DNA of 12,725 nt. Origin: a virus (taxonomy: Duplodnaviria > Heunggongvirae > Uroviricota > Caudoviricetes). The position numbers and the translations under genes are program-made. The notes under the pieces are model-generated. The model did no database searches. It was not told the DNA's origin and saw nothing but the letters and a program-made list of their open reading frames with translations. Location: IMG/VR virus record IMGVR_UViG_2859827302_000006. One strand, 5' to 3'. Of this stretch, positions 1-12,725 are shown piece after piece (positions within the stretch are counted from its first letter, which is position 1; every line of letters begins with the position of its first letter).

Positions 1-1461
1 ATGAAAAAATTACTGCGTCTTTTTTTCCCGCTCTCGCTGCGGGTACGTTTTCTGTTGGCAACGGCTGCGGTAGTACTGGTGCTTTCGCTTGCCTACGGAA
101 TGGTCGCGCTGATCGGTTATAGCGTCAGTTTCGATAAAACTACGTTTCGGCTGTTACGTGGCGAGAGCAATCTGTTCTATACCCTTGCGAAGTGGGAAAA
201 CAATAAGTTGCATGTCGAGTTACCCGAAAATATCGACAAGCAAAGCCCCACCATGACGCTAATTTATGATGAGAACGGGCAGCTTTTATGGGCGCAACGT
301 GACGTGCCCTGGCTGATGAAGATGATCCAGCCTGACTGGCTGAAATCGAATGGTTTTCATGAAATTGAAGCGGATGTTAACGATACCAGCCTCTTGCTGA
401 GTGGAGATCATTCGATACAGCAACAGTTGCAGGAAGTGCGGGAAGATGATGACGACGCGGAGATGACCCACTCGGTGGCAGTAAACGTCTACCCGGCAAC
501 ATCGCGGATGCCAAAATTAACCATTGTGGTGGTGGATACCATTCCGGTGGAGCTAAAAAGTTCCTATATGGTCTGGAGCTGGTTTATCTATGTGCTCTCA
601 GCCAATCTGCTGTTAGTGATCCCGCTGCTGTGGGTCGCCGCCTGGTGGAGTTTACGCCCCATCGAAGCCCTGGCAAAAGAAGTCCGCGAACTGGAAGAAC
701 ATAACCGCGAATTGCTCAATCCAGCCACAACGCGAGAACTGACCAGTCTGGTACGAAACCTGAACCGATTGTTAAAAAGTGAACGCGAACGTTACGACAA
801 ATACCGTACGACGCTCACCGACCTGACCCATAGTCTGAAAACGCCACTGGCGGTGCTGCAAAGTACGCTGCGTTCTCTGCGTAGTGAAAAGATGAGCGTC
901 AGTGATGCTGAGCCGGTAATGCTGGAGCAAATCAGCCGCATTTCACAGCAAATTGGCTACTACCTGCATCGTGCCAGTATGCGCGGCGGGACATTGCTCA
1001 GCCGCGAGCTGCATCCGGTCGCCCCACTGCTGGACAATCTCACCTCAGCGCTGAACAAAGTGTATCAACGCAAAGGGGTCAATATCTCTCTCGATATTTC
1101 GCCAGAGATCAGCTTTGTCGGTGAGCAGAACGATTTTGTCGAGGTGATGGGCAACGTGCTGGATAATGCCTGTAAATATTGCCTCGAGTTTGTCGAAATT
1201 TCTGCAAGGCAAACCGACGAGCATCTCTATATTGTGGTCGAGGATGATGGCCCCGGTATTCCATTAAGCAAGCGAGAGGTCATTTTCGACCGTGGTCAAC
1301 GGGTTGATACTTTACGCCCTGGGCAAGGTGTAGGGCTGGCGGTAGCCCGCGAAATCACCGAGCAATATGAGGGTAAAATCGTCGCCGGAGAGAGCATGCT
1401 GGGCGGTGCGCGGATGGAGGTGATTTTTGGTCGCCAGCATTCTGCGCCGAAAGATGAATAA
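1..1461 (+). CDS. phoQ: Sensor histidine kinase PhoQ of the PhoP/PhoQ two-component system, full length (486 aa)
   Basis: Translation is recognised as enterobacterial PhoQ: two N-terminal transmembrane segments, periplasmic acidic patch EDDDDAE, HAMP region, H-box [11 protein letters not shown], and ATPase motifs DNACKY, DDGPGI, GQGVGL; ends in TAA at 1459-1461. Confidence 0.96.
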
Positions 1462-1675
1462 ATATGTCCTTTTATCACTATATCAAGACAAACCATTGAT
1501 TTAATTAAATAATCTACACTGAAAAAGTGCCAAAAATCGCAAATTGACTACACCATTAACTACACCGTTCGGTGCACCGTATGAAACAACGTGGAACAAA
1601 TAGACACAAGAAATATACAGGCGGATCATCTTTCCAGGGGGAAGCGCACCAATTCATGAGGGGCGTTAATGTCTA

Positions 1676-2077: not shown

Positions 2078-2159
2078 AGGTTTCCGAAAATATCAACGGG
2101 TTAGGCTGGTTTCCCCGATGTTCGCCGCTGGCGAATTTCGAAAATATCAACCAGTTACC
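2078..2159. repeat. Imperfect direct repeats GGTTTCCGAAAATATCAAC / AATTTCGAAAATATCAAC, each next to a GTTACCGC motif
   Basis: Copies at 2078-2097 and 2133-2152; GTTACCGC at 2052-2059 and 2154-2161. The core GTTTCCG resembles the lambda cosB R-element core. Confidence 0.5.
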
Positions 2160-2436
2160 GCCGCAACCGCTCCGGCTTCTTCCAGTGGTACGTTATTTTT
2201 TCTTTCTCCCGATACAGTTCAACGCGGCGATTGTAGGCCAGCATTTCCAGAACGCGGATCCGTATGTCGCGCATATCAACATCATTAAGCTGGATACCAT
2301 CACGGCGCATCACCTCAGCAACAACACGCACATAATTTTCAGCGGTCACGCTGTCCGGCTGCGTGGCCTGTTCGTCATGCTGCTGGCTGATTCCGGCAAC
2401 GCGGCGGATTAATCGCAGTATTTCGGCTTCTGTCAT
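2155..2436 (-). CDS. Hypothetical protein (93 aa), last gene of the island before the non-coding terminus
   Basis: ATG at 2436 preceded by GGGGG 4-5 nt upstream; protein-like composition; the overlapping + strand ORF 2185-2412 looks like antisense noise. No recognisable motif. Confidence 0.55.
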   Translation of the reverse strand: MTEAEILRLIRRVAGISQQHDEQATQPDSVTAENYVRVVAEVMRRDGIQLNDVDMRDIRIRVLEMLAYNRRVELYREKEKITYHWKKPERLRR

Positions 2437-2470: not shown

Positions 2471-2535
2471 GGGTCCTTCCTGGAATTATGGCCCGTTACG
2501 GGGCGGCGACCTCGCGGTTTTTCGCTATTTATGAG
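2471..2535 (+). other. Lambda-type cos site (cos-1), cosN cohesive-end sequence GGGCGGCGACCT at 2501-2512, inverted relative to cos-2
   Basis: CCCGTTACGGGGCGGCGACCTCGCGGTTTTTCGCTATTTATGA matches the phage lambda cosN region and left-end leader with a one-base difference; the flank GGGTCCTTCCTGG resembles the lambda cosQ-side sequence. Confidence 0.75.
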
Positions 2536-2729: not shown

Positions 2730-3170
2730 TTAACTTTGCTGTTCTGTAACGACTGATTGTTCCATGCTGGCACGGCGAACGCTTACGGCATGACGCCACC
2801 CAGCCAGAAAGCCAGCCATTTTATTTCGTGCCTTGCTCACATCTTCCGGTGAATAGCCGTAAATCTGCAAACCTTCATCAAATCGATGTTCTGTTTCTTC
2901 ACTGGAGTACTCGTCACGCTCAGATGAAAGCAGCCTGGCAAACATAATTTTTTCCAGCGCACTGGTTTCTACGTGATATCTGATGGCCTCAAGACGGCTT
3001 TTACCTGAAGACCAAAGCAATGTATGCCCGATGTGATAACCGCCAGACTTTCCGCGATCCGCATTAAGATACGGCATCCCCTGTTTGGTCCATGCGCGAA
3101 TAGTGGTTCTGTTAACCTTGAAATGTTCAGCTATTTCCTGCTGACTTACAAAACAAGCTTTATCAATCAT
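2730..3170 (-). CDS. Terminase small subunit homolog (lambda Nu1-like winged-HTH N-terminus); candidate packaging-redirection protein
   Basis: N-terminus QQEIAEHFKVNRTTIRAWTKQGMPYL parallels lambda Nu1 KKQLADIFGASIRTIQNWQEQGMPVL; ATG at 3170 with AAGGTA ribosome-binding site; cos-2 lies about 70 bp upstream, as in lambda cos-Nu1. At 146 aa it is shorter than Nu1 (181 aa). Confidence 0.85.
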   Translation of the reverse strand: MIDKACFVSQQEIAEHFKVNRTTIRAWTKQGMPYLNADRGKSGGYHIGHTLLWSSGKSRLEAIRYHVETSALEKIMFARLLSSERDEYSSEETEHRFDEGLQIYGYSPEDVSKARNKMAGFLAGWRHAVSVRRASMEQSVVTEQQS

Positions 3171-3240: not shown

Positions 3241-3300
3241 TAAATAGCGAAAACCCGCGAGGTCGCCGCCCCGTAACGGGTCCATATGCCGGAAAGGACC
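3241..3300 (-). other. Lambda-type cos site (cos-2) with cosQ-like flank, oriented toward the Nu1-like gene
   Basis: Minus-strand reading GGTCCTTTCCGG...CCCGTTACGGGGCGGCGACCTCGCGGGTTTTCGCTATTTATGA matches lambda cosQ/cosN/left-end sequence; cohesive-end 12-mer is the complement of 3260-3271. Confidence 0.8.
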
Positions 3301-3302
3301 CG

Positions 3303-3328
3303 TAAAAAAAGCCGGATTTCTCCGGCCT
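3303..3328 (-). terminator. Rho-independent terminator ending the capsid operon
   Basis: Minus-strand GCCGGA-GAAA-TCCGGC followed by T7, immediately after the stop of the 137-aa gene. Confidence 0.75.
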
Positions 3329-3332
3329 TGTC

Positions 3333-3746
3333 TCAGATGGTTTTCAGTATGCGCTCGATGTCGCCATCATCGCCCGGGTTTCTGCCGTCGTATGCCATGC
3401 CAGCTGAAACGGCTTGCGGGCTGTGCATGTCCATAAAGTTTTCAAAGGCTGCGGTAAGCTCCGGCGCAACCTTCTGGCGTTCCTGCTCTATGGTCATGCT
3501 AAGGATGCTTTTAGCCGTACCAACATCGATACAAGGCACGTTTGCCATTGCACGTAACAGCGGCTGATAGTCGTTATGCTCATGAAGCGCCATAATCGCA
3601 TCAGCGCGCGGCTTGTCCTGCTCTTCCAGTTTGTTGAGTTGATATACGGCCTCGTAGGTTGATAAACCTCTGTCAGCCATTGCCCGCGCTTCGGCTTTAA
3701 ATTTACTCGCCAGCGGTAGCGTCATGATGCTTTCATTCGTTGCCAT
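3333..3746 (-). CDS. Hypothetical protein (137 aa), last gene of the capsid operon
   Basis: ATG at 3746 with GGGGGA ribosome-binding site 4 nt upstream; 12 nt downstream of the D-like gene stop; protein-like composition; no recognisable motif. Confidence 0.65.
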   Translation of the reverse strand: MATNESIMTLPLASKFKAEARAMADRGLSTYEAVYQLNKLEEQDKPRADAIMALHEHNDYQPLLRAMANVPCIDVGTAKSILSMTIEQERQKVAPELTAAFENFMDMHSPQAVSAGMAYDGRNPGDDGDIERILKTI

Positions 3747-3758
3747 CGTTCCCCCTGC

Positions 3759-4094
3759 TTATCGGGCCAGCGGCTGAACGGATACGCCAGAACCCGCAAA
3801 GGCGGCGCATTTTTTCGCATCGGTGTCGACGCTCTCGGGCCAGTTCACGGCGGCGATATTAAAGATCCCCGTCTTGTAGCACTGTGCTGATTTCTGCTTT
3901 GACGTGTCCACGGGGTACGAAGTCAGATAAACAGCCTTTCCGGACGCCTGACCATCCCACGGCTTAAACTCGCCATTGTCCGCCAGCATCAGCGGGGTAA
4001 ATTCCTGAATGACGCCAGCATCAGCGGCAAAATGTACCAGCGTCGTGGATACCTGCTGACTGCCTGCAAATAACTCAATGTATGGAGTGTTCAT
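3759..4094 (-). CDS. Head decoration protein homolog (lambda gpD-like), 111 aa
   Basis: Size matches gpD (110 aa); C-terminal YKTGIFNIAAVNWPESVDTDAKKCAAFAGSGVSV parallels gpD [35 protein letters not shown]; ATG at 4094 with GGGGGA ribosome-binding site. Confidence 0.7.
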   Translation of the reverse strand: MNTPYIELFAGSQQVSTTLVHFAADAGVIQEFTPLMLADNGEFKPWDGQASGKAVYLTSYPVDTSKQKSAQCYKTGIFNIAAVNWPESVDTDAKKCAAFAGSGVSVQPLAR

Positions 4095-4105
4095 AGAATC
4101 CCCCG

Positions 4106-5161
4106 TTAACCAATTTTGACGGTAACAAATTTGCGAATGTCTGCCGGCACCGGCTGCGGTGCGCTGTGCGTCTGCACGTACTCAATCGCCGGATCGCCGT
4201 CCTCAATCCAGTTTTTCGGGTAGTACATGTTTTGCGTTGCGCCCGTTCTTACCGCTTCCTGATCCATAATCGCACCATAAGCAACCAGCCCTTTATTGTT
4301 GGTGTTGCCCAAGACCAGCAAATCAGGCTCAAGGAAATGTTTTTCGGTGCCGTCGCTGTCGGCGTATTTGCCGGAATAGACGATAAGGGCAATATCGCCC
4401 AGATAGCCTTTAAAGCTCACCACTTCGCCCAGGTTTTTACAGGCCAGTTCTGCGGCGGATTCTGAACCACGGGAAAGATCGTACAGTTCGCGGAATTTTT
4501 TAAAGCTGCGTAACGTGCGCCATACCTCAGCGCCCATAATCATGACGTTTGCGGGGCAATTGCCCTGATCCGCATAAAGCTCGATATCATAGATTGGATC
4601 GTGGGTTTCTTTGTCCTGCTCGGACCATTTACGGCCTTTGGCCTGCTCTATGATGTTGTTTTCCGGCATCTTCCAGTCGATTTCATAGCGTTCTATGCCT
4701 TCGCCCTCAATGATGTTTTTTCCGGTCGTTACCGCATTTACCGCCAGCCATTCAACACGCGCTTTAATAGCGTTTACCTGGCGGCGCATGTTGCCAGTAA
4801 TCAGGCGCATACGGCGATAGGTTGGGTCGTTAAGCTGTGCCGGATCTTCTCCAGCCATGCGCATGATGGTTTTTGTTGGATCGATTTCGTGCTTTGGCTT
4901 CATGTAGCCAGGTTTAATCGTGCTGGTTTCGTACCCTTTATCGCGCTGTACCTGGCTACCAACCATAGGCGAGCAAAACGCTGACATAGTGACTTCTTCG
5001 GTGTCCAGGTTATCCAGCATGATGTTTTGGGTGTTGAATGTCGCTACTTTCGGGAAAAACAGCGTGGTAAACAGCGGACTAAATTTAAATTCCGCAATAT
5101 CCCCGCGATTCAGGTACGCAAAAAGCTGGTGAGTGTTAAGTGCCGTTGCTTTGCCTGCCAT
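4106..5161 (-). CDS. Major capsid protein homolog (lambda gpE family), 351 aa
   Basis: Collinear motif matches to lambda gpE along the length: KPGYMKPKHEIDP, RRMRLITGNMRR, SFKGYLGDIALIVYSGKY, FLEPDLLVLGNTNNKGL, YPKNWIEDGDPA; ATG at 5161 with GGGGGTG ribosome-binding site. All + strand ORFs inside it are antisense. Confidence 0.9.
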   Translation of the reverse strand: MAGKATALNTHQLFAYLNRGDIAEFKFSPLFTTLFFPKVATFNTQNIMLDNLDTEEVTMSAFCSPMVGSQVQRDKGYETSTIKPGYMKPKHEIDPTKTIMRMAGEDPAQLNDPTYRRMRLITGNMRRQVNAIKARVEWLAVNAVTTGKNIIEGEGIERYEIDWKMPENNIIEQAKGRKWSEQDKETHDPIYDIELYADQGNCPANVMIMGAEVWRTLRSFKKFRELYDLSRGSESAAELACKNLGEVVSFKGYLGDIALIVYSGKYADSDGTEKHFLEPDLLVLGNTNNKGLVAYGAIMDQEAVRTGATQNMYYPKNWIEDGDPAIEYVQTHSAPQPVPADIRKFVTVKIG

Positions 5162-5367
5162 TATTCACCCCCATAATTTTTATGCATCCCAAGCGCCGCA
5201 AGTAAATAAGAGCGTACAAGTGAACCTATCGACGGCTCCGGCGTCATCAGCGGATCCAGTCCAGCCGCCACGCCAGCCTCATAGTTTTTTTTGTGGCGCT
5301 GCTTGAGCACCTCCACGATTTCGGGGCTTATGTACACCGAAACACCGCCTTTTTTCTCTTCAGCCAT
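5161..5367 (-). CDS. Hypothetical small protein (68 aa), first gene of the capsid operon
   Basis: ATG at 5367 with GAGGAA ribosome-binding site; its stop overlaps the capsid gene start (TAATG). Confidence 0.55.
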   Translation of the reverse strand: MAEEKKGGVSVYISPEIVEVLKQRHKKNYEAGVAAGLDPLMTPEPSIGSLVRSYLLAALGMHKNYGGE

Positions 5368-5402
5368 AGTAAGAAATTCCTCTTCGACTTAAAAAATCAT
5401 AA

Positions 5403-5452
5403 CTGGATGTTCATCCAGCTCTGATTATAATCATGATTGCATTTTGTGCAAT
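5403..5452 (-). promoter_or_regulatory. Putative capsid-operon promoter (TTGCAC-16 nt-TATAAT, minus strand) with a perfect 16-bp palindrome just downstream
   Basis: The -10 TATAAT is the complement of 5424-5429 and the -35 TTGCAC is the complement of 5446-5451; CTGGATGTTCATCCAG at 5403-5418 is perfectly palindromic. Confidence 0.4.
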
Positions 5453-5528
5453 GATATTGAGTTGTGTTGCAAATTATGAAATGATTATCCCGATCATGTG
5501 TGTCAGTGCACCAAAAAGCCTCATATGC

Positions 5529-5570
5529 AAAAGCCCGATAAGCCACCTCTGACCTTATCGGGCTTTTTTA
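5529..5570 (+). terminator. Strong hairpin plus T-tract, an intrinsic terminator for + strand transcription
   Basis: GCCCGATAAG-11 nt loop-CTTATCGGGC (10-bp perfect stem, 5533-5563) followed by TTTTTT; only AAAA precedes it, so it is weaker on the minus strand. Confidence 0.5.
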
Positions 5571-5694
5571 TCTGCCTGCAAAGATGTCGAACAAAAATTA
5601 ACCATAACCATCATCTTTTTTGCATCAAAACAATTAAAAACAATAAATTACGCTCATGATGATGATGACGATAAAATCACAAAAATGCGCTTTT

Positions 5695-5743
5695 TTCCGC
5701 GCCTCCCGCCCCGTGTTCAGGCCCACCCCGCCAGGAGGCCCCG
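5695..5743 (-). other. Degenerate cos-like sequence (cos-3) next to a copy of the cos-2 terminator
   Basis: Minus-strand ACGGGGCCTCCTGGCGG...ACGGGGCGGGAGGCGCGG aligns to cos-2 ACGGGTCCTTTCCGGCA...ACGGGGCGGCGACCTCGCGG, but the cohesive-end core is disrupted. Confidence 0.45.
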
Positions 5744-5767
5744 TAAAAAAGCCGGATTGCTCCGGCT
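5744..5767 (-). terminator. Rho-independent terminator ending the replication operon after the SSB gene
   Basis: Minus-strand GCCGGA-GCAA-TCCGGC followed by T6, 16 nt after the SSB stop; near-identical to the terminator at 3303-3328. Confidence 0.7.
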
Positions 5768-5782
5768 TCTGTCACTCGTCGC

Positions 5783-6205
5783 TTAAAACGGTATGTTATC
5801 CCCGTACGGATCATCATTCCCCGCCTGTTGTTTTGCCCTGTTCAGCGCGTCAGTAGCCTGGCCCTGTTGACCTTTTTTGCCGCCCAGTCGCGCCGTTCGC
5901 GCACTGATTACACTGTCTGCGATAACCTGCCAGCCCTGCCGCGTTTCTCCGTTCTGCCCAGTCCACTGGCTGATCTGCATGTTACCCGCCACGCTCAGGA
6001 GTTCACCCTTGCGGTGCCTTTCCAGTGCTTCGGCCTGTCTGCCAAATGCCAGGACGGATAACCACATCGTCGCCGTTCCGTCATCTGCCTGGCTGCACGG
6101 AAGGGGGACCGCCATACGTGCCAGCGTCATTGGTGTGCCCTTGCTGGTCTGTTTTACCTGCGGGTCGTCCACCAGCCGCCCGTAAGCTGCTATCTGTGCT
6201 GTCAT
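5783..6205 (-). CDS. ssb: Single-stranded DNA-binding protein homolog (140 aa)
   Basis: OB-fold-like N-terminal region, Gly/Gln-rich linker and acidic C-terminal tail ending DDPYGDNIPF (compare E. coli SSB DDDIPF); strong ribosome-binding site GGAGAGGTGG; ATGA overlap with the upstream gene. Confidence 0.8.
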   Translation of the reverse strand: MTAQIAAYGRLVDDPQVKQTSKGTPMTLARMAVPLPCSQADDGTATMWLSVLAFGRQAEALERHRKGELLSVAGNMQISQWTGQNGETRQGWQVIADSVISARTARLGGKKGQQGQATDALNRAKQQAGNDDPYGDNIPF

Positions 6206-6483: not shown

Positions 6484-6657
6484 TTTTTCAAGCGTCTCAC
6501 TTCGTCGCAGTTGGGATTTTCGGTTTTTCTATGTGTGTGTTTCATAAGTATTTTTTTACCCCTCACTTTTGAGGATGTATACAGGTCGAAAAGTGAGGGA
6601 GAGCGGGCTAATTTTGGCCCTCTTTCTATCCCCCTCGCTTTTGCTCCTCACTTTTAT
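6463..6657. repeat. Iteron array, putative replication origin: seven copies of CTCACTTTT (two variants, one inverted) around an AT-rich spacer
   Basis: Copies at 6465-6475, 6478-6488, 6495-6504 (variant), 6561-6570, 6589-6599 (inverted), 6634-6642 (variant) and 6646-6655; AT-rich stretch 6510-6560; lies directly 3-prime of the Rep ATPase gene. Confidence 0.6.
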
Positions 6658-8054
6658 AGCGGCGCTACATCATCCCCATCGATACGAATAACCCCATCTT
6701 TTTCCAGCTTGTACAGCCAGCGCCGGAAGTTTTTCATTTCATACCCCAGCTTTTTCATGTCATCACGTAACAGCGGGATCGTGCACTTGTCGCCGTTCTG
6801 TGTGCGTGAACGGATGCACCCCCATAGCGCGGTATGGTTTTCCGTCTTGTTCCCTGCCTCCTCGATGCGCTCCAGTTCAACAGGAGGGCGCGGATCATCC
6901 ACCACCACCAGCGACGTGATTAATTCACCGTCAGCGTCGGTAAAAAGCTCCACCACGCGTAAGTCATATGCGGCTTCTTTGAGTTCCTCCGCGTCCTTCA
7001 TTTTGGTGCATGAGATAACCAGCGCTTCGCTTCCTGCGTCCTCCCTGCGTATCCGGTATTCAGCATCCAGCGAAGCACGAAATGCACTGGAACCGCGCGC
7101 GCCTTTCGTCTCATCCTTGCCGGAATGGTGAACCACCAGCACCGTGGCCCCTGTGCGTCGTTTCAGTTCGTCACAACCACGGATAAACGCCCCCATATCA
7201 CGGGAATCATTTTCATCATTCCCACCAAAGCAACGCGCCAGCGTATCCAGAATAATCATGCGTACAGGTTTACCCGTTTCCCGCTCCACCTGACGGGCAG
7301 CGATAACCATTTCATCAACATCAAGCGGGGCAGCCGGAAAGATGGGGCGGTTTACCAGATACAGATTTTTCACCTGCTCATCGTGCACAACCTCCCAGGC
7401 TTTTACACGACGCGGAACACCTATACCGCCTTCACCAACCACATAGAGAACCGCACCATGTGCAACCCTGCGGCCTCCCCACTGGCGACCAGTGGCAACA
7501 TGGCACGCCCACGATCCGGCAAGGAATGATTTATAGGACCCGCTAGCTCCGTATATGCTGCATAGCGATACCGCCGGAATAATCCCCTTAACCACGTAAT
7601 CCAGTTGCGTGTCGTATCCGGTAGATCCAACGCTCATCGGTAGCGTGGTTTTTCGCTGGTGGTTTTTTTCTTCCGCCGGCTCTTTCCCGCGCACCCGTTC
7701 CAGGTATTCGCGCCAGTTCTCCCGCATATGGCTGTGCATCCCTTCGGGGTAATAATTCGCATCAGTTACACCCGCCGCCGCCAGCTTGTGCGCAATGGCA
7801 TTAATATTTGATGGCCTGATGTGGCCTGCCTTGTACAGCCGGACACAATAGCGCCCCTCGTCGATGATTCTCAGGTCTGCCAGTTCATCCAGTTGATCAT
7901 CAGCCAGCACAACGGGAGGCACATTATCGCCAGCCAGTCGCCCGTCCTGTTCCTGCCACTGTTTCGCATGTGCCCAGGCATCACTACCCGCAAAAATAAT
8001 GACTTCGGTCATCTTGTCGTAAGGCTGTTTTTTTAAGTTCGGTGCGCTTTTCAT
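6654..8054 (-). CDS. RepA-like RecA-fold (AAA_25-type) replication ATPase, putative initiator-helicase (466 aa)
   Basis: Walker A GASGSYKS, Walker B-like MIILDTLARCFGG, motif VLVVHHSGKD and a basic C-terminal region; ATG at 8054 with AGGGG ribosome-binding site and ATGA overlap with the upstream gene. The N-terminal 150 aa have no recognisable primase motifs. Confidence 0.85.
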   Translation of the reverse strand: MKSAPNLKKQPYDKMTEVIIFAGSDAWAHAKQWQEQDGRLAGDNVPPVVLADDQLDELADLRIIDEGRYCVRLYKAGHIRPSNINAIAHKLAAAGVTDANYYPEGMHSHMRENWREYLERVRGKEPAEEKNHQRKTTLPMSVGSTGYDTQLDYVVKGIIPAVSLCSIYGASGSYKSFLAGSWACHVATGRQWGGRRVAHGAVLYVVGEGGIGVPRRVKAWEVVHDEQVKNLYLVNRPIFPAAPLDVDEMVIAARQVERETGKPVRMIILDTLARCFGGNDENDSRDMGAFIRGCDELKRRTGATVLVVHHSGKDETKGARGSSAFRASLDAEYRIRREDAGSEALVISCTKMKDAEELKEAAYDLRVVELFTDADGELITSLVVVDDPRPPVELERIEEAGNKTENHTALWGCIRSRTQNGDKCTIPLLRDDMKKLGYEMKNFRRWLYKLEKDGVIRIDGDDVAPL

Positions 8055-8350
8055 TTCTTGCCCCTGAATCCGTTAACCATGGTTTTCAGCTTCTGGATGT
8101 TTGCCCGTGCCCTGGCGTTGCTGGTGGGCACGTTATGCGGCGCGGTCTGTACCAGAGAAAAATCACGCCGGAACTGATAAACAGGCATCACGCAATCATA
8201 TTCGTAACCTTCACGGCGGTAGGTTACACGCCGTTCTTCCACGCCCTTAATCATTACCGTGCCGCCGTACTGGTCGCGGTAAATATCACCGCGCGTAAAT
8301 TTAGGGTGAGTGTTGCCACTGGCAGTTAAGCCAGAATATTTAAGTTTCAT
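8051..8350 (-). CDS. Hypothetical protein (99 aa)
   Basis: GGAGAA ribosome-binding site before the ATG at 8350; stop overlaps the Rep start (ATGA). Confidence 0.55.
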   Translation of the reverse strand: MKLKYSGLTASGNTHPKFTRGDIYRDQYGGTVMIKGVEERRVTYRREGYEYDCVMPVYQFRRDFSLVQTAPHNVPTSNARARANIQKLKTMVNGFRGKK

Positions 8351-9386: not shown

Positions 9387-9606
9387 GTACCCCTCCGCAT
9401 TTTTTTTCGTTAGAAATAAGCGTTCTTCTTTCCTGTTCATCGCTCAGGAATACGCAGACCTCACCGCTAAGGCGTTTAAGTAAGCCGATGATTGCCCCTG
9501 ATTCGCTGTCGGTCATCATGCTAGGGTAATCCTCTGCCAGTGCGCAAATAACTTCGATTTGGTGGGCGCGTTCTGCTGCCTGTTGTAGTGTGATTTCCTG
9601 GCTCAT
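9376..9606 (-). CDS. Hypothetical small protein (76 aa)
   Basis: ATG at 9606 overlaps the preceding stop (ATGA); GGGGG upstream. Confidence 0.5.
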   Translation of the reverse strand: MSQEITLQQAAERAHQIEVICALAEDYPSMMTDSESGAIIGLLKRLSGEVCVFLSDEQERRTLISNEKKCGGVHVQ

Positions 9607-9803
9607 AAGCCTACCCCCTGACGAATACGGGCAGCAAATACCATCACGCAGCCAGCCGGAGATTGCTGGCGTGCTTCCTGTTCGCTGGTGGCCTCAATGG
9701 TAATCACGCGCGGTTGTGCCGTGCTCAGGGCGATAAAACGCCAGATGTATTTATTCAGGTTGTGCGAGTCCCGCCCTTTCGGGTGTGTGGTATGATTTCT
9801 CAT
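9603..9803 (-). CDS. Hypothetical small protein (66 aa), first gene of the main leftward operon; it is the C-terminal part of the 428-codon stop-free frame
   Basis: In-frame ATG at 9803 with GAGG ribosome-binding site, about 90 nt downstream of the predicted minus-strand promoter. Confidence 0.4.
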   Translation of the reverse strand: MRNHTTHPKGRDSHNLNKYIWRFIALSTAQPRVITIEATSEQEARQQSPAGCVMVFAARIRQGVGL

Positions 9804-9900
9804 AGCTACCTCGATACTGTTGCTATCGTTGGTGGTTAGAAGCCCCGTTACTGCTCCTACAGTGCGGGGTTTCGTCGTTTCTGTGCCTTTCATCAATAAG

Positions 9901-9981
9901 GTGTAAGACACAATGTAAAACAATGGTGTCTTACACGTCAACCCTTCAAAATATTTTTTTTTCGTGTATATTGTCTTACAC
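9901..9981. promoter_or_regulatory. Divergent promoter/operator switch between the RHH gene (+) and the main operon (-)
   Basis: Inverted repeat GTGTAAGACAC (9901-9911) / GTGTCTTACAC (9926-9936) plus half-site GTCTTACAC (9973-9981); + promoter TTCAAA (9945-9950)-16 nt-TATATT (9967-9972); minus promoter TTGACG (complement of 9936-9941)-17 nt-TTACAT (complement of 9913-9918). Confidence 0.55.
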
Positions 9982-10002
9982 CAAAAACATGAGGGGTTAA
10001 AC

Positions 10003-10182
10003 ATGGCAACGGGTCCAAAGAATGCAAAATCACAATCTGTAACTGCACGTATTGCCCATGAAATTATTGAAGGCATGGAGAACGTGAAAGAAGAAGGCGA
10101 AAGCACGGGACAGTTTATAAACGCAGCCATGCGCGGCGAAATCAAACGCCGCCAGCGCCGCAAGGCCAAAGAGCAGGAGTAA
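10003..10182 (+). CDS. Ribbon-helix-helix (CopG/Arc/MetJ-like) DNA-binding protein, about 59 aa; candidate repressor of the switch
   Basis: ATG at 10003 with GAGGGG ribosome-binding site; the pattern SVTARIAHEIIEGMENVKEEGESTGQFINAAMRGEIKRR fits a beta-strand plus two helices; the ORF-track start at 9964 (GTG) lies inside the promoter. Confidence 0.7.
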   Translation: MATGPKNAKSQSVTARIAHEIIEGMENVKEEGESTGQFINAAMRGEIKRRQRRKAKEQE

Positions 10183-10224
10183 CCATCACCAGCGCCGTGG
10201 TGTGAGTAACTACGGCGCATTGCT

Positions 10225-10413
10225 ATGCAGGACAACACAATGACCGATAAAGAATTGACCAAAACATTATCACCGGCACGGAAAAGACGGCGCAGAAAGA
10301 TAGAGCATGAATCAGAAAGATTCGCGCCATGTGCTTTTGCCCTTGAGCAATTCCTTAAAGAGTACAGGGAAAAGCGCTCATTGCAGGTATGGCAACGAAC
10401 TGAACCAGACTGA
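10225..10413 (+). CDS. Possible small Arg/Lys-rich protein co-transcribed with the RHH gene (likely start ATG 10240)
   Basis: Weak AGGA ribosome-binding site; basic stretch ARKRRRRK; followed by a + strand terminator. Could instead be untranslated. Confidence 0.35.
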   Translation: MQDNTMTDKELTKTLSPARKRRRRKIEHESERFAPCAFALEQFLKEYREKRSLQVWQRTEPD

Positions 10414-10490
10414 TTGCATTGCCCACCAGCCGCAAATGTGGCATTATTGGCAATGCTCATGCGTTGGGGATAACGTGTAGCTTGTGTCGA

Positions 10491-10520
10491 GGGGCCACCG
10501 TAGCGGGTGGCCTTTGTTTT
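10491..10520 (+). terminator. Rho-independent terminator of the RHH transcription unit
   Basis: GGCCACC-GTAGCG-GGTGGCC (10493-10512) followed by TTTGTTTT; a second weaker hairpin plus T-run lies at about 10613-10646. Confidence 0.6.
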
Positions 10521-10526
10521 GCCCGT

Positions 10527-10889
10527 TATTCGGCAATTGTGGCGCTTCTCCACATGGTTGATATAATCCCACTGCTCAGATTCATTTTTTGCGCAGTAGG
10601 TTAATTGTTCACAAAGGCGCTCCGGCAACGGGGCGCTTTTTGTTTTTATTAGTTTGTAGAAACCTGACTCAGAGATAATGCTCATATTCTGATTGCCGTC
10701 AGGGGTGTAAGTTAAATTTACTCCCTTTTTATCATCAAACATCTGCAACGCTCTGGCGTTAACAATATTGGTTTCACTCCCGCCAGTAAGGCCGGAAATA
10801 ACCGGAATAATTTCGGCAAAATTTTGCAGATTCTGTTTTTCAGGACGAACGAAGCCCCGCCCTTGTTCGGGAGAATATCCAGTATTCAT
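10527..10889 (-). pseudogene. Possible decayed gene with a Bro-N-like antirepressor N-terminus; the frame runs on without a stop to 9603
   Basis: The first 95 or so codons look protein-like and include ISESGFYKLIKTKSAPLPE, reminiscent of the Bro-N motif; downstream the frame is antisense to the RHH operon and rich in C/S/R; weak ribosome-binding site. Confidence 0.3.
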
Positions 10890-10941: not shown

Positions 10942-11130
10942 TTAGTGAACTGCCTCGCAGCTGTCCTTCCATGCCAGAACTTCGGATAAAGACCAGCCAA
11001 CGGAACGACCGCCCAGCTTACGCCGTGATGGGAATTGTCCGGCTTTTTCCAGGCGGTACCGACATGAGCGGCTCAGGCCTGTAAGTTGCTGACATTCTTT
11101 TTCACGTATAAAGCGATCTGTGCTTAACAC
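10942..11130 (-). CDS. alpA: AlpA-family (prophage CP4-57 / P4 Vis-like) HTH transcriptional regulator, 62 aa
   Basis: FIREKECQQLTGLSRSCRYRLEKAGQFPSRRKLGGRSVGWSLSEVLAW fits the AlpA/MerR-like HTH pattern; GTG start at 11130 with GGGGGA ribosome-binding site; directly downstream of int. Confidence 0.8.
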   Translation of the reverse strand: MLSTDRFIREKECQQLTGLSRSCRYRLEKAGQFPSRRKLGGRSVGWSLSEVLAWKDSCEAVH

Positions 11131-11495: not shown

Positions 11496-12725
11496 TTATA
11501 TTTCTCTGGCTATTGGCAATGTGGTTACGTTTTCATGTGTTCCCGCCAGTATCCCTAACCGCTCCGTCCACATATCCAGCGCGTCACGTTTCGCATCCAG
11601 ATAACGGGAATGGTTATAGACTCGTTGCATCCCTGGCATCTGATGACCTGTAAGCTGCTCCACGACGTGAGGATCCACGCCTAAATCGTTCAGCATCGTT
11701 GTAAAGGTGCGCCGGATGTCATGCAGTGACCAGTGAGGGTGTTTTAGCCTCCTGTGCGCTAATCTGCCGTACTGCGACACGCTTGTTTCCTGTTTCACTT
11801 CCCCCAGCAATAAGCCCGTGTGCCTGTTCTGCTCCACCAGCTGCGTGACGAACGGCAGTATTGCTTCCGGTATGGGCCGGAATATTGCCACCTTCGTTTT
11901 GCTGTGTTCTTTCGGCACGGTCCAGAGCATTTCGGTAAAATCCCACTCGCTGATCTCCGATAACCTCAGTTCTACCGTCCGGCATCCGAAAACAATCAGG
12001 AGGCGGATTAGTGCGACGTAGTAAGGGGAAAATATTTTTTTGTCCAGTGCCTGCAATAATTCGCCAAGTTCTTTGGTGCTTAAGACACGCTCGCTTATAT
12101 CCGGTTTTTTCCCAACGTCCGCCACACTCATATCATCAAGAACGTTGCTGATTGCATAGCGCCGCCTCCGGCAGAACTTAAGCGCCTGTTTGCACGTCTG
12201 TAGCAAGAATCCGGCAGTAACAGGCGTTCGCTTTGCCACCTGGTCAAAACAGGCCAGCCAGTGCCGTAGCTCGCATTTATCCAGCGGCATAGCACCAATG
12301 TGCTGTATTACGTGATTATTAAGGCGCTTTTTCAGGGCGGCATAATCCACGCGGTTTTCCTTTACGTAAGACTCAAGCCAGTAGGTAAGCGCATCGCCAA
12401 CCGTTACGGGCTTTAACGCTTTCTGTACGGTGTAATTCATCTCATGACGTGGATTTTTCCCCTCAGCAAGCCAAGCGCGACACTGTGCCGCTTTTTCCCT
12501 GGCAGCTTTCAGACTCAGATCAGGATAATTTCCCAGCTTAATCCGTTCCGGTCGTGCTCCCCTTCCCGTTCCGGCCCTGTAGGTGAAATACCAGGTTAAA
12601 AGGCCGCTGGTTGAATGCCTGACGCTCAGGTTTCCACCGTCATTAAGAAAGGCTGTTTTTTGGGCGGGTGTGCCGTTGATTTTCCTTAGCTGTGTATCAC
12701 TCAGTTTGTTAAGTGCTCTGCGCAT
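11496..12725 (-). CDS. int: Tyrosine site-specific integrase, P4-type (409 aa); start codon at the window edge
   Basis: N-terminal arm-binding region with the LNDGGNLSV motif (compare P4 Int LADGGGLYL); C-terminal catalytic signature with R in GCRTVELR, HxxR in LHDIRRTF and the Tyr region GHQMPGMQRVYNHSRYL. Confidence 0.92.
   Translation of the reverse strand: MRRALNKLSDTQLRKINGTPAQKTAFLNDGGNLSVRHSTSGLLTWYFTYRAGTGRGARPERIKLGNYPDLSLKAAREKAAQCRAWLAEGKNPRHEMNYTVQKALKPVTVGDALTYWLESYVKENRVDYAALKKRLNNHVIQHIGAMPLDKCELRHWLACFDQVAKRTPVTAGFLLQTCKQALKFCRRRRYAISNVLDDMSVADVGKKPDISERVLSTKELGELLQALDKKIFSPYYVALIRLLIVFGCRTVELRLSEISEWDFTEMLWTVPKEHSKTKVAIFRPIPEAILPFVTQLVEQNRHTGLLLGEVKQETSVSQYGRLAHRRLKHPHWSLHDIRRTFTTMLNDLGVDPHVVEQLTGHQMPGMQRVYNHSRYLDAKRDALDMWTERLGILAGTHENVTTLPIAREI

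Follow-up and report, generated by a model that had tools for sequence, protein, structure and literature searches.

A lambda-type capsid and decoration operon with a Nu3-type scaffold homolog in a phage-inducible chromosomal island of the EcCICFT073 family

The analysed DNA (the window) is a stretch of 12,725 nucleotides (nt) from the IMG/VR virus record IMGVR_UViG_2859827302_000006, assigned to Caudoviricetes. It contains a four-gene operon on the minus strand, at positions 3333-5367, which encodes, in reading order, a 68-amino-acid (aa) protein, a major capsid protein of the phage lambda gpE type, a gpD-type decoration protein and a 137-aa protein (Table 1). The region is almost certainly the head-shell operon of a classical cos-type Gram-negative phage-inducible chromosomal island (PICI) of the EcCICFT073 family, orthologous to the genes c1498-c1501. 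The genes are tightly packed. The stop codon of the 68-aa gene overlaps the start of the capsid gene (TAATG), the decoration gene follows the capsid gene after 11 nt, and spacers of 11-12 nt with a GGGGGA Shine-Dalgarno sequence precede both the decoration gene and the 137-aa gene. An initial annotation, made from the letters alone, had recognized a four-gene operon, but the range assigned to it, 3759-5367, holds only three of the genes and leaves out the one for the 137-aa protein.

The 351-aa product of the second gene matches Pfam Phage_cap_E (PF03864) at 4.2e-50 over residues 27-349 and phrog_29 at 4e-105. It is 43% identical to lambda gpE over 342 aa (4e-95), in a nearly gapless alignment that shows no inserted domain, and ~95% identical (2e-227) to the crystal structure PDB 3BQW, described as "putative capsid protein of prophage". 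The full-length sequence match and the solved structure at 95% identity place it among HK97-fold capsid proteins of the lambda E family, and a shell-forming role is predicted for it. The 111-aa product of the adjoining gene is related to Pfam HDPD (PF02924, 5.6e-18), phrog_49 (4e-28) and the "head decoration protein" of PDB 1TD0 (3e-13), which we take to be SHP of phage 21. It shares 36% identity with lambda gpD and 43% with the gpD homolog of Gifsy-1, and both its sequence and its position next to the capsid gene assign it to the decoration family. These two homologies had been proposed in the initial annotation and are far beyond chance; the concern expressed there, that the 351-aa protein might lack a capsid fold, is answered by its Phage_cap_E match and its similarity to 3BQW. 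Scans of all four operon proteins against NCBIfam and PADLOC gave no matches.

Searches with the 137-aa protein, which had been listed as an unknown partner, disclosed its kind. It matches phrog_1999 at 6e-65 and, at 5.5e-8, the C-terminal region of phrog_53, "head maturation protease", while Nu3 of lambda matches the same family phrog_1999 at 2.7e-26. In a BLASTP comparison, residues 49-119 aligned with residues 411-480 of the 498-aa gpC homolog of Gifsy-1 (E 1e-6), the gene annotation of which mentions a contained scaffold. A profile built for the 137-aa family retrieved only 12 proteins at E <= 0.001 among 1.8 billion proteins, including P0067 (4.5e-7) and P0069 (2.7e-5), both of them Nu3-like scaffolds with several repeats, which match scaffold and Nu3 entries of PHROG at ~1e-30 to 1e-55. 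The direct match between the 137-aa protein and lambda is weak (8.7 bits, hhalign E 0.005). Features common to the protein and Nu3 comprise two copies of the motif IM-L...LA..P...V..AK.IL, an F..FM..HSP..V..G box and a [DR][IL]L[NK]T tail. Family members share only 42-49% identity overall, yet the RILKTI tail at the C-terminus does not vary among them; it resembles the lambda gpC/Nu3 tail DLLNTPV.

The C-terminal gpC/Nu3 segment is therefore recognizable in the 137-aa protein. Unlike Nu3, which is nested in frame in the 3' part of the head protease gene, it is encoded by a stand-alone gene after the decoration gene, and no S49 protease was detected in the island. We assign the protein, on sequence grounds, as a Nu3-type scaffold homolog with a predicted internal scaffold role. 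The assignment is new, and the library searched yielded nothing that links PICIs to Nu3 or scaffold homologs, or that addresses a later function of c1499 or c1500. Relatives of the protein (P0002, P0004, P0007 and others) are called "phage head-tail connector protein" by PGAP/NCBI. As the window's copy matches no NCBIfam or Pfam model, the label looks like a mis-annotation, and scaffold homology is preferred. No similarity to lambda FI was found, and a comparison with PDB sequences returned only a chance match. The AlphaFold2 model is all-helical, partly disordered and of low confidence (predicted local distance difference test, pLDDT, 61.5), compatible with a scaffold but not informative.

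The 68-aa protein has no similarity to lambda W or to any other lambda head or packaging protein. E. coli and Salmonella are the sources of its named relatives, and in the contexts that were examined it lies in islands of the same kind. AlphaFold2 gives a two-helix model (pLDDT 69.8), and faint matches to BrnA and RHH_1 occur in 2/8 and 1/8 members of the family, respectively, so that the protein is possibly of the ribbon-helix-helix (RHH) type. Foldseek searches with the models of the 137-aa and 68-aa proteins against BFVD and PDB returned nothing at E below 1.

The operon resides in an island of ~11.2 kb inserted between phoQ and roxA. Its ends are formed by a 75-nt direct repeat with a near-perfect core of ~36 nt, the two copies of which are separated by 10,980 bp in locus L001. 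This locus is nearly identical to the window (99% identity, with 93% of the query aligned), and roxA follows its integrase gene. The second copy was seen in that locus, 22 nt past the integrase start and therefore beyond the window end. As both copies were located, one of them through L001, the whole element is effectively in view. All 20 plausible open reading frames (ORFs) were scanned, and no portal, protease, large terminase (TerL), tail or lysis gene was found in the att-bounded island. Consistent with the initial annotation, the element is a phage satellite that cannot build a head by itself. The absence stated there, of portal, scaffold/protease, TerL and tail genes, holds except for the scaffold, and the possibility that portal and TerL genes lie elsewhere in the same element is answered in the negative because the island is fully bounded.

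The remaining content is that of a Gram-negative cos-type PICI: an att-flanked island in the range of ~10-12 kb with the integrase at one end, an AlpA-type regulator with an autonomous replication module, and Rpp together with helper-type cos sites. Genes are read mostly in a single direction, on the minus strand, after phoQ, and small ORFs with no assigned role are also present. Helper-dependent induction, packaging and high-frequency transfer have been shown experimentally for the ortholog EcCICFT073 only (PMC6092414). The capsid-forming PICIs (cf-PICIs, such as EcCIEDL933; Alqurainy et al.) have the same type of int-alpA-rep left arm, and their capsid proteins are likewise phylogenetically separate from phage homologs. 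In contrast to the present island, they encode portal, protease, head-tail connectors, HNH, the small terminase (TerS) and TerL, and make small capsids; none of this gene set was found among the plausible ORFs of the island.

Table 1. Features located in the window, in order of position (strand and supporting evidence as available)
Position	Strand	Feature	Evidence or remark
1-1461	+	phoQ	opens the window
1547-1577	.	att core, phoQ-proximal island end	~36-nt core; same core in the EcCICFT073 delta-int primer arm
2155-2436	-	conserved 93-aa ORF, last island gene	phrog_1561 3e-57; hypothetical-protein gene annotated here in relatives
2501-2512	+	cosN, lambda 12-nt cohesive end GGGCGGCGACCT, inverted relative to the other copy	exact match
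2730-3170	-	rpp (redirecting phage packaging), TerS-binding helix-turn-helix (HTH) protein	PDB 6HLK RppC 5.7e-31, residues 2-125; weak TerS/HTH matches
3260-3271	-	cosN, same orientation as the capsid operon	exact 12-nt match
3304-3327	-	rho-independent terminator hairpin ending the capsid operon	GGCCGGAGAAATCCGGC then T7 run, few nt past the 137-aa stop
3333-3746	-	stand-alone Nu3-type scaffolding-protein homolog, 137 aa (c1501 ortholog); role predicted	phrog_1999, phrog_53 C-terminal region
3759-4094	-	gpD/SHP-type head decoration protein, 111 aa (c1500 ortholog)	Pfam HDPD, phrog_49
4106-5161	-	lambda-gpE-type HK97-fold major capsid protein, 351 aa (c1499 ortholog)	Pfam Phage_cap_E, PDB 3BQW
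5161-5367	-	68-aa protein, possibly ribbon-helix-helix (c1498 ortholog)	phrog_3255 8.5e-46
5451-5480	-	weak sigma-70-like promoter candidate upstream of the operon	9/12 consensus match
5783-6205	-	single-stranded DNA-binding protein (SSB)	Pfam SSB 4.9e-15
6654-8054	-	RepA-type replicative helicase (pri-rep equivalent)	Pfam AAA_25 2.4e-43; phrog_2850 6e-267
8051-8350	.	DUF4222 protein	adjacent to the RepA helicase gene
10942-11130	-	AlpA-like HTH regulator/excisionase	phrog_2790 5.9e-18; equivalent gene of relatives has Pfam Phage_AlpA
11496-12725	-	tyrosine integrase	phrog_1 5.8e-74; start codon = window end

Downstream of the operon, the order of features is terminator, cosN and rpp. Two inverted, exact copies of the lambda cosN bracket rpp and an AT-rich stretch, an arrangement that mirrors cos1/cos2 of EcCICFT073. 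Beyond the copy that shares the orientation of the operon, the minus strand downstream of 3271 extends the cohesive end with CGCGGGTTTTCGCTATTTATGA, which we take to match the first ~34 nt of the lambda left end. EcCICFT073 has been reported with two functional cos sites (PMC6092414), and Rpp with two inverted lambda cosN copies flanking its gene agrees with the published packaging system of that island.

The likeness to EcCICFT073 (Fillol-Salom et al. 2018 ISME J; PDB 3BQW) extends to the att core, the gene order, the sizes 68/351/111/137 aa, the ~95% identical capsid protein, and Rpp with two cos sites downstream. The operon in the window is nevertheless another allele, its proteins being 92-100% identical to those of other family members. 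The window carries a RepA helicase, whereas some relatives have a P4/D5-type primase, and it is without a perC-like gene upstream of the operon. A stretch of 415 bp between SSB and the capsid operon (5368-5782) holds no convincing gene; in L002, L006, L007 and L008 this gap is filled by a PerC-family regulator gene.

The operon, with its capsid and decoration genes, has already been described for an EcCICFT073-like PICI. The supplementary table of Fillol-Salom et al. 2018 lists c1498 (68 aa), c1499 (351 aa, capsid), c1500 (111 aa, decoration) and c1501 (137 aa) of EcCICFT073, a capsid gene is reported in 21/29 reference Gram-negative PICIs, and two reviews and a later paper consider the capsid gene common in such islands and not required. 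As first noted, the observation adds nothing to this literature; the additions are the Nu3-type homolog, the purifying selection and an old, satellite-only capsid clade.

To assess conservation, the operon was searched for in complete E. coli genomes, where it was found in 598/5426 (11%), with at least 80% of its length carried by 590. Selection was examined in seven islands whose integrases, att sites and replication modules differ, as do their packaging genes (Rpp or Nu1-like TerS). The four ORFs have stayed intact in 7/7 of these islands, at a divergence that reaches up to ~1-1.5 in synonymous distance (dS). Pooled omega (dN/dS) over the seven is 0.105 for the capsid gene, 0.105 for the decoration gene, 0.27 for the 68-aa gene and 0.29 for the 137-aa gene, and the four genes are under purifying selection.

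Capsid relatives were retrieved at 95, 85, 67, 63, 55, 54 and 51% identity from Escherichia, Salmonella and Serratia, and all of them adjoin an HDPD gene in islands of the int-AlpA-primase/helicase type. The best match to a phage capsid protein, among 50,697 phage records, is 46% (Gifsy-1), with lambda-like phages at 42-45%. Seven satellite capsid proteins verified by context form a clade that excludes phage capsid proteins in 100/100 neighbour-joining bootstraps. The capsid lineage is old and satellite-specific, and in this it differs from lambda, the window protein being distinct from all sampled phage capsid proteins. The capsid-decoration pair is the conserved core of the module, and the 68-aa and Nu3-like genes are present only in lineages with at least 63% capsid identity. 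In the 51-55% lineages, a second AlpA-like HTH gene takes the place of the Nu3-like gene after the decoration gene (L011 9402-9746, L014 9375-9812, L015 9403-9756). One further record of the 55% lineage, P0101, is a 463-aa protein on a 3.2-kb contig with both Phage_cap_E and HDPD, an apparent capsid-decoration fusion that is either real or due to a sequencing frameshift.

In four of the loci (L003, L010, L012 and L014), the capsid-decoration module belongs to PICIs embedded inside prophages, which match the class of helper-embedded PICIs (PMC10111431). The L003 and L014 islands adjoin P2-type contractile-tail genes, and that of L012 interrupts the lambda-E-type capsid gene of its own helper. 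The latter reproduces the situation of the helper-embedded PICI 11capE (Williams lab, PMC10111431), an island inserted in the E gene of its helper and carrying the same capsid-decoration module family. The present island differs in being chromosomal (phoQ/roxA), and the 55% lineage lacks the 68-aa and Nu3-like genes.

These data bear on whether the operon could be what is left of the head module of a lambdoid prophage, now functionless and in decay. Dispensability in all published assays is in line with such a history, as is the gene order, E, D and Nu3-like as against C/Nu3, D and E in phages. However, the ORFs remain intact in every one of the diverged islands with omega at 0.1-0.3, at least 80% of the operon is kept by nearly all genomes that carry it, the satellite clade is monophyletic across several genera, and other phage debris is absent from the att-bounded island. 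Pseudogenised genes and relaxed selection, expected of a degraded prophage, were not found, and the selection analysis effectively refutes a decaying remnant. Set against the lambda head genes, the operon has homologs of all three shell-forming products, at 43% identity for E and 36% for D, and with the shared motif, box and tail for Nu3; on the other hand, its order E-D-Nu3-like contrasts with Nu3-D-E in lambda, its scaffold homolog stands alone while that of lambda is nested in the protease gene, and the island has no homologs of B, the C protease, W, FI, FII and A.

In the cargo of enterobacterial PICIs, few genes are conserved as well as those for the capsid and decoration proteins. The identity of the operon in the window is secure; its function is not. 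By analogy with Ccm of cos-type Staphylococcus aureus pathogenicity islands (SaPIs), the initial annotation had suggested that the capsid and decoration homologs serve to make small, satellite-sized capsids. In its general form, this explanation would have helper gpE forced into small, satellite-sized capsids through co-assembly with the capsid protein and scaffold homolog of the satellite, with a natural helper other than those tested. Ccm of SaPIbov5 offers a precedent, as it too is an HK97-fold capsid homolog encoded by a cos-packaged satellite, and PmCI172, according to the literature, has small heads and likewise encodes a capsid homolog. The tail motif that the 137-aa protein shares with the C-terminus of Nu3 can be counted on the same side. 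CpmB of SaPI1 is a mimic of the C-terminus of the 80-alpha scaffold, so that both satellites encode a small helical protein that is akin to the helper scaffold or imitates it; the two proteins are likened by role, not by sequence. A T=3-sized shell would also roughly accommodate one 11.2-kb copy, as a matter of arithmetic only.

The Ccm analogy was, however, explicitly tested on EcCICFT073 by Fillol-Salom et al. (PMC6092414). The DNA packaged with lambda as a helper was all of phage size, the band of the PICI monomer was absent with the native CFT073 helper, and EcCICFT073 is described in phage-sized capsids. Deletion of c1499 or c1500 neither relieved lambda interference nor abolished transfer (PMC6092414). 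We suspected a marker artefact in these strains, in which "c1501::tetA" would break the operon, and rejected it, as the primer arm ends exactly at the c1501 stop (window 3333-3353); with the tetA cassette placed directly after this stop, the reading frames of the operon were intact in the strains tested and the published negatives stand. In addition, the capsid protein aligns almost without gaps to gpE. The EcCICFT073 ortholog is thus without the small capsids or the Ccm-like interference of SaPIbov5, and the partners of the capsid protein in the window are a decoration protein and a separate scaffold homolog. Similarly, the scaffold homolog in the window differs from CpmB in being accompanied by its own capsid protein, and size redirection was not observed in the ortholog. 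Nu3 homology fits an assembly role for the 137-aa protein, but does not speak for a change in size. We consider redirection to small capsids, as first proposed, very improbable.

The shell proteins could alternatively act as an assembly poison or defence, mis-assembling with, or sequestering, the portal or protease of lambdoid phages, as a second layer of interference masked by Rpp. Interference is a hallmark of PICIs, a benefit in defence would agree with the strong conservation and with the presence in 11% of E. coli genomes, and the published deletions were made with rpp intact. Nevertheless, when the post-ori genes were cloned individually in pBAD18, only c1503 (rppA) blocked lambda (Fillol-Salom et al. 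2019; PMC6739421). In mutants of lambda and phi80 that escape the island or the cloned rppA, the only substitutions are in TerS, which means that these phages meet no other barrier in the island (PMC6739421). The four proteins also had no PADLOC matches. The published results make lambda poisoning, as well as size redirection, unlikely, and we regard a defensive function as improbable.

We tentatively propose, at somewhat less than even confidence, that the E-like, D-like and Nu3-like proteins form a matched shell kit that would make heads of helper size. After induction of the helper, the three shell proteins would assemble on a portal supplied by the helper and be processed by its gpC-type protease. 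The products could be pure satellite shells, or mosaics with helper gpE. Such heads would be helper-sized (T=7) and filled with multimeric PICI DNA by the Rpp-TerS-TerL pathway, the satellite shells adding to or substituting for those of the helper and not shrinking them. Because they would be redundant with abundant wild-type helper shells, little or no effect of deletion would be expected. In this proposal, phage-sized packaging and dispensability are taken from the literature, and we infer co-assembly with the helper portal and protease and redundancy with helper shells.

Several observations are consistent with this shell kit. The island carries its own scaffold homolog, with the invariant tail that resembles gpC/Nu3, and its own decoration homolog beside the capsid protein, and the near-gapless gpE alignment with no inserted domain points to shells of helper size. 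Four copies of 11.2 kb amount to 45 kb, which by arithmetic fits a lambda head, given the generally known packaging range of lambda. A detail compatible with the kit is found in Table 1 of PMC6092414, where transfer of the delta-c1499 island is 1.7-2.1-fold below the parent in 4/4 recipients, at a stated variation of +/-5%.

A number of points weigh against the shell kit. None of the shell proteins is reported from particles in the literature consulted. Fillol-Salom et al. recorded "no phenotype" for c1499, the loss of which is fully tolerated (PMC6092414), and transfer of the island still reaches 1e5-1e6 per ml when cat stands in place of c1499 (PMC6092414); the capsid protein is therefore not needed for transfer by phage 4, lambda and phi80. 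The satellite capsid protein is 43-46% identical to helper gpE, and its use of the helper portal and protease is only putative. The 137-aa and 68-aa proteins gave poor structure models and empty fold searches, as mentioned above. Four loci (L011, L013, L014 and L015) have capsid and decoration genes with no Nu3-like gene, which means that not every lineage has the full kit. Nor is it evident what a satellite would gain from redundant shells.

A non-structural role was also considered, in which the capsid and decoration proteins are decoys or sensors in conflicts among phage, satellite and host, or the operon acts in regulation through the 68-aa putative RHH protein. The published assays gave no structural phenotype, the 68-aa protein has its faint RHH/BrnA similarity, and the position after the decoration gene is taken in other lineages by a second gene for an AlpA-like HTH protein. 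Positive evidence for such a role is nevertheless lacking, and omega of 0.1 across a full-length HK97-fold protein, together with matched decoration and scaffold homologs, is what assembly constraints would be expected to produce. We judge a non-structural role to be quite improbable.

Taken as a whole, with the identity of the operon and the shell-kit mechanism combined, the proposed explanation is the best available, held with a confidence just short of even. Its strongest form, in which the trio is a self-sufficient kit building satellite-specific, helper-sized heads on a stolen portal and protease, hidden in the published assays by redundancy with helper shells, is rather unlikely. If true, it would place this widespread E. 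coli PICI family midway, in evolution as in function, between the classical PICIs that take over entire capsids and the cf-PICIs that take over tails alone. The Nu3-type homolog, the selection on the operon and the satellite clade make the idea of satellite-supplied shells directly testable with classical lambda amber mutants.

Regulatory signals around the operon were surveyed by a consensus scan for promoters and terminators. Counts were at shuffle expectation, and the scan missed the obvious terminator that ends the operon. Since promoter-like sites are no more frequent than expected from shuffling, the site upstream of the operon is only a candidate. A near-identical terminator hairpin, AAAAAAGCCGGATT[T/G]CTCCGGC, is present both after the SSB gene (5744-5767) and after the 137-aa gene, resembling a duplicated terminator cassette.

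Elsewhere in the island, an uninterrupted ORF of 428 aa was observed on the minus strand at 9603-10889. Over its final ~90 residues it matches an Icd-like "transcriptional repressor" PHROG (8.8e-55), and residues ~50-85 show a weak match to Ant/BRO anti-repressors. The ORF fully overlaps two plus-strand ORFs with PHROG matches of their own (9964-10182 and 10225-10413). At this position, RefSeq relatives are annotated only with the Icd-like gene and YlcI/YnfO.

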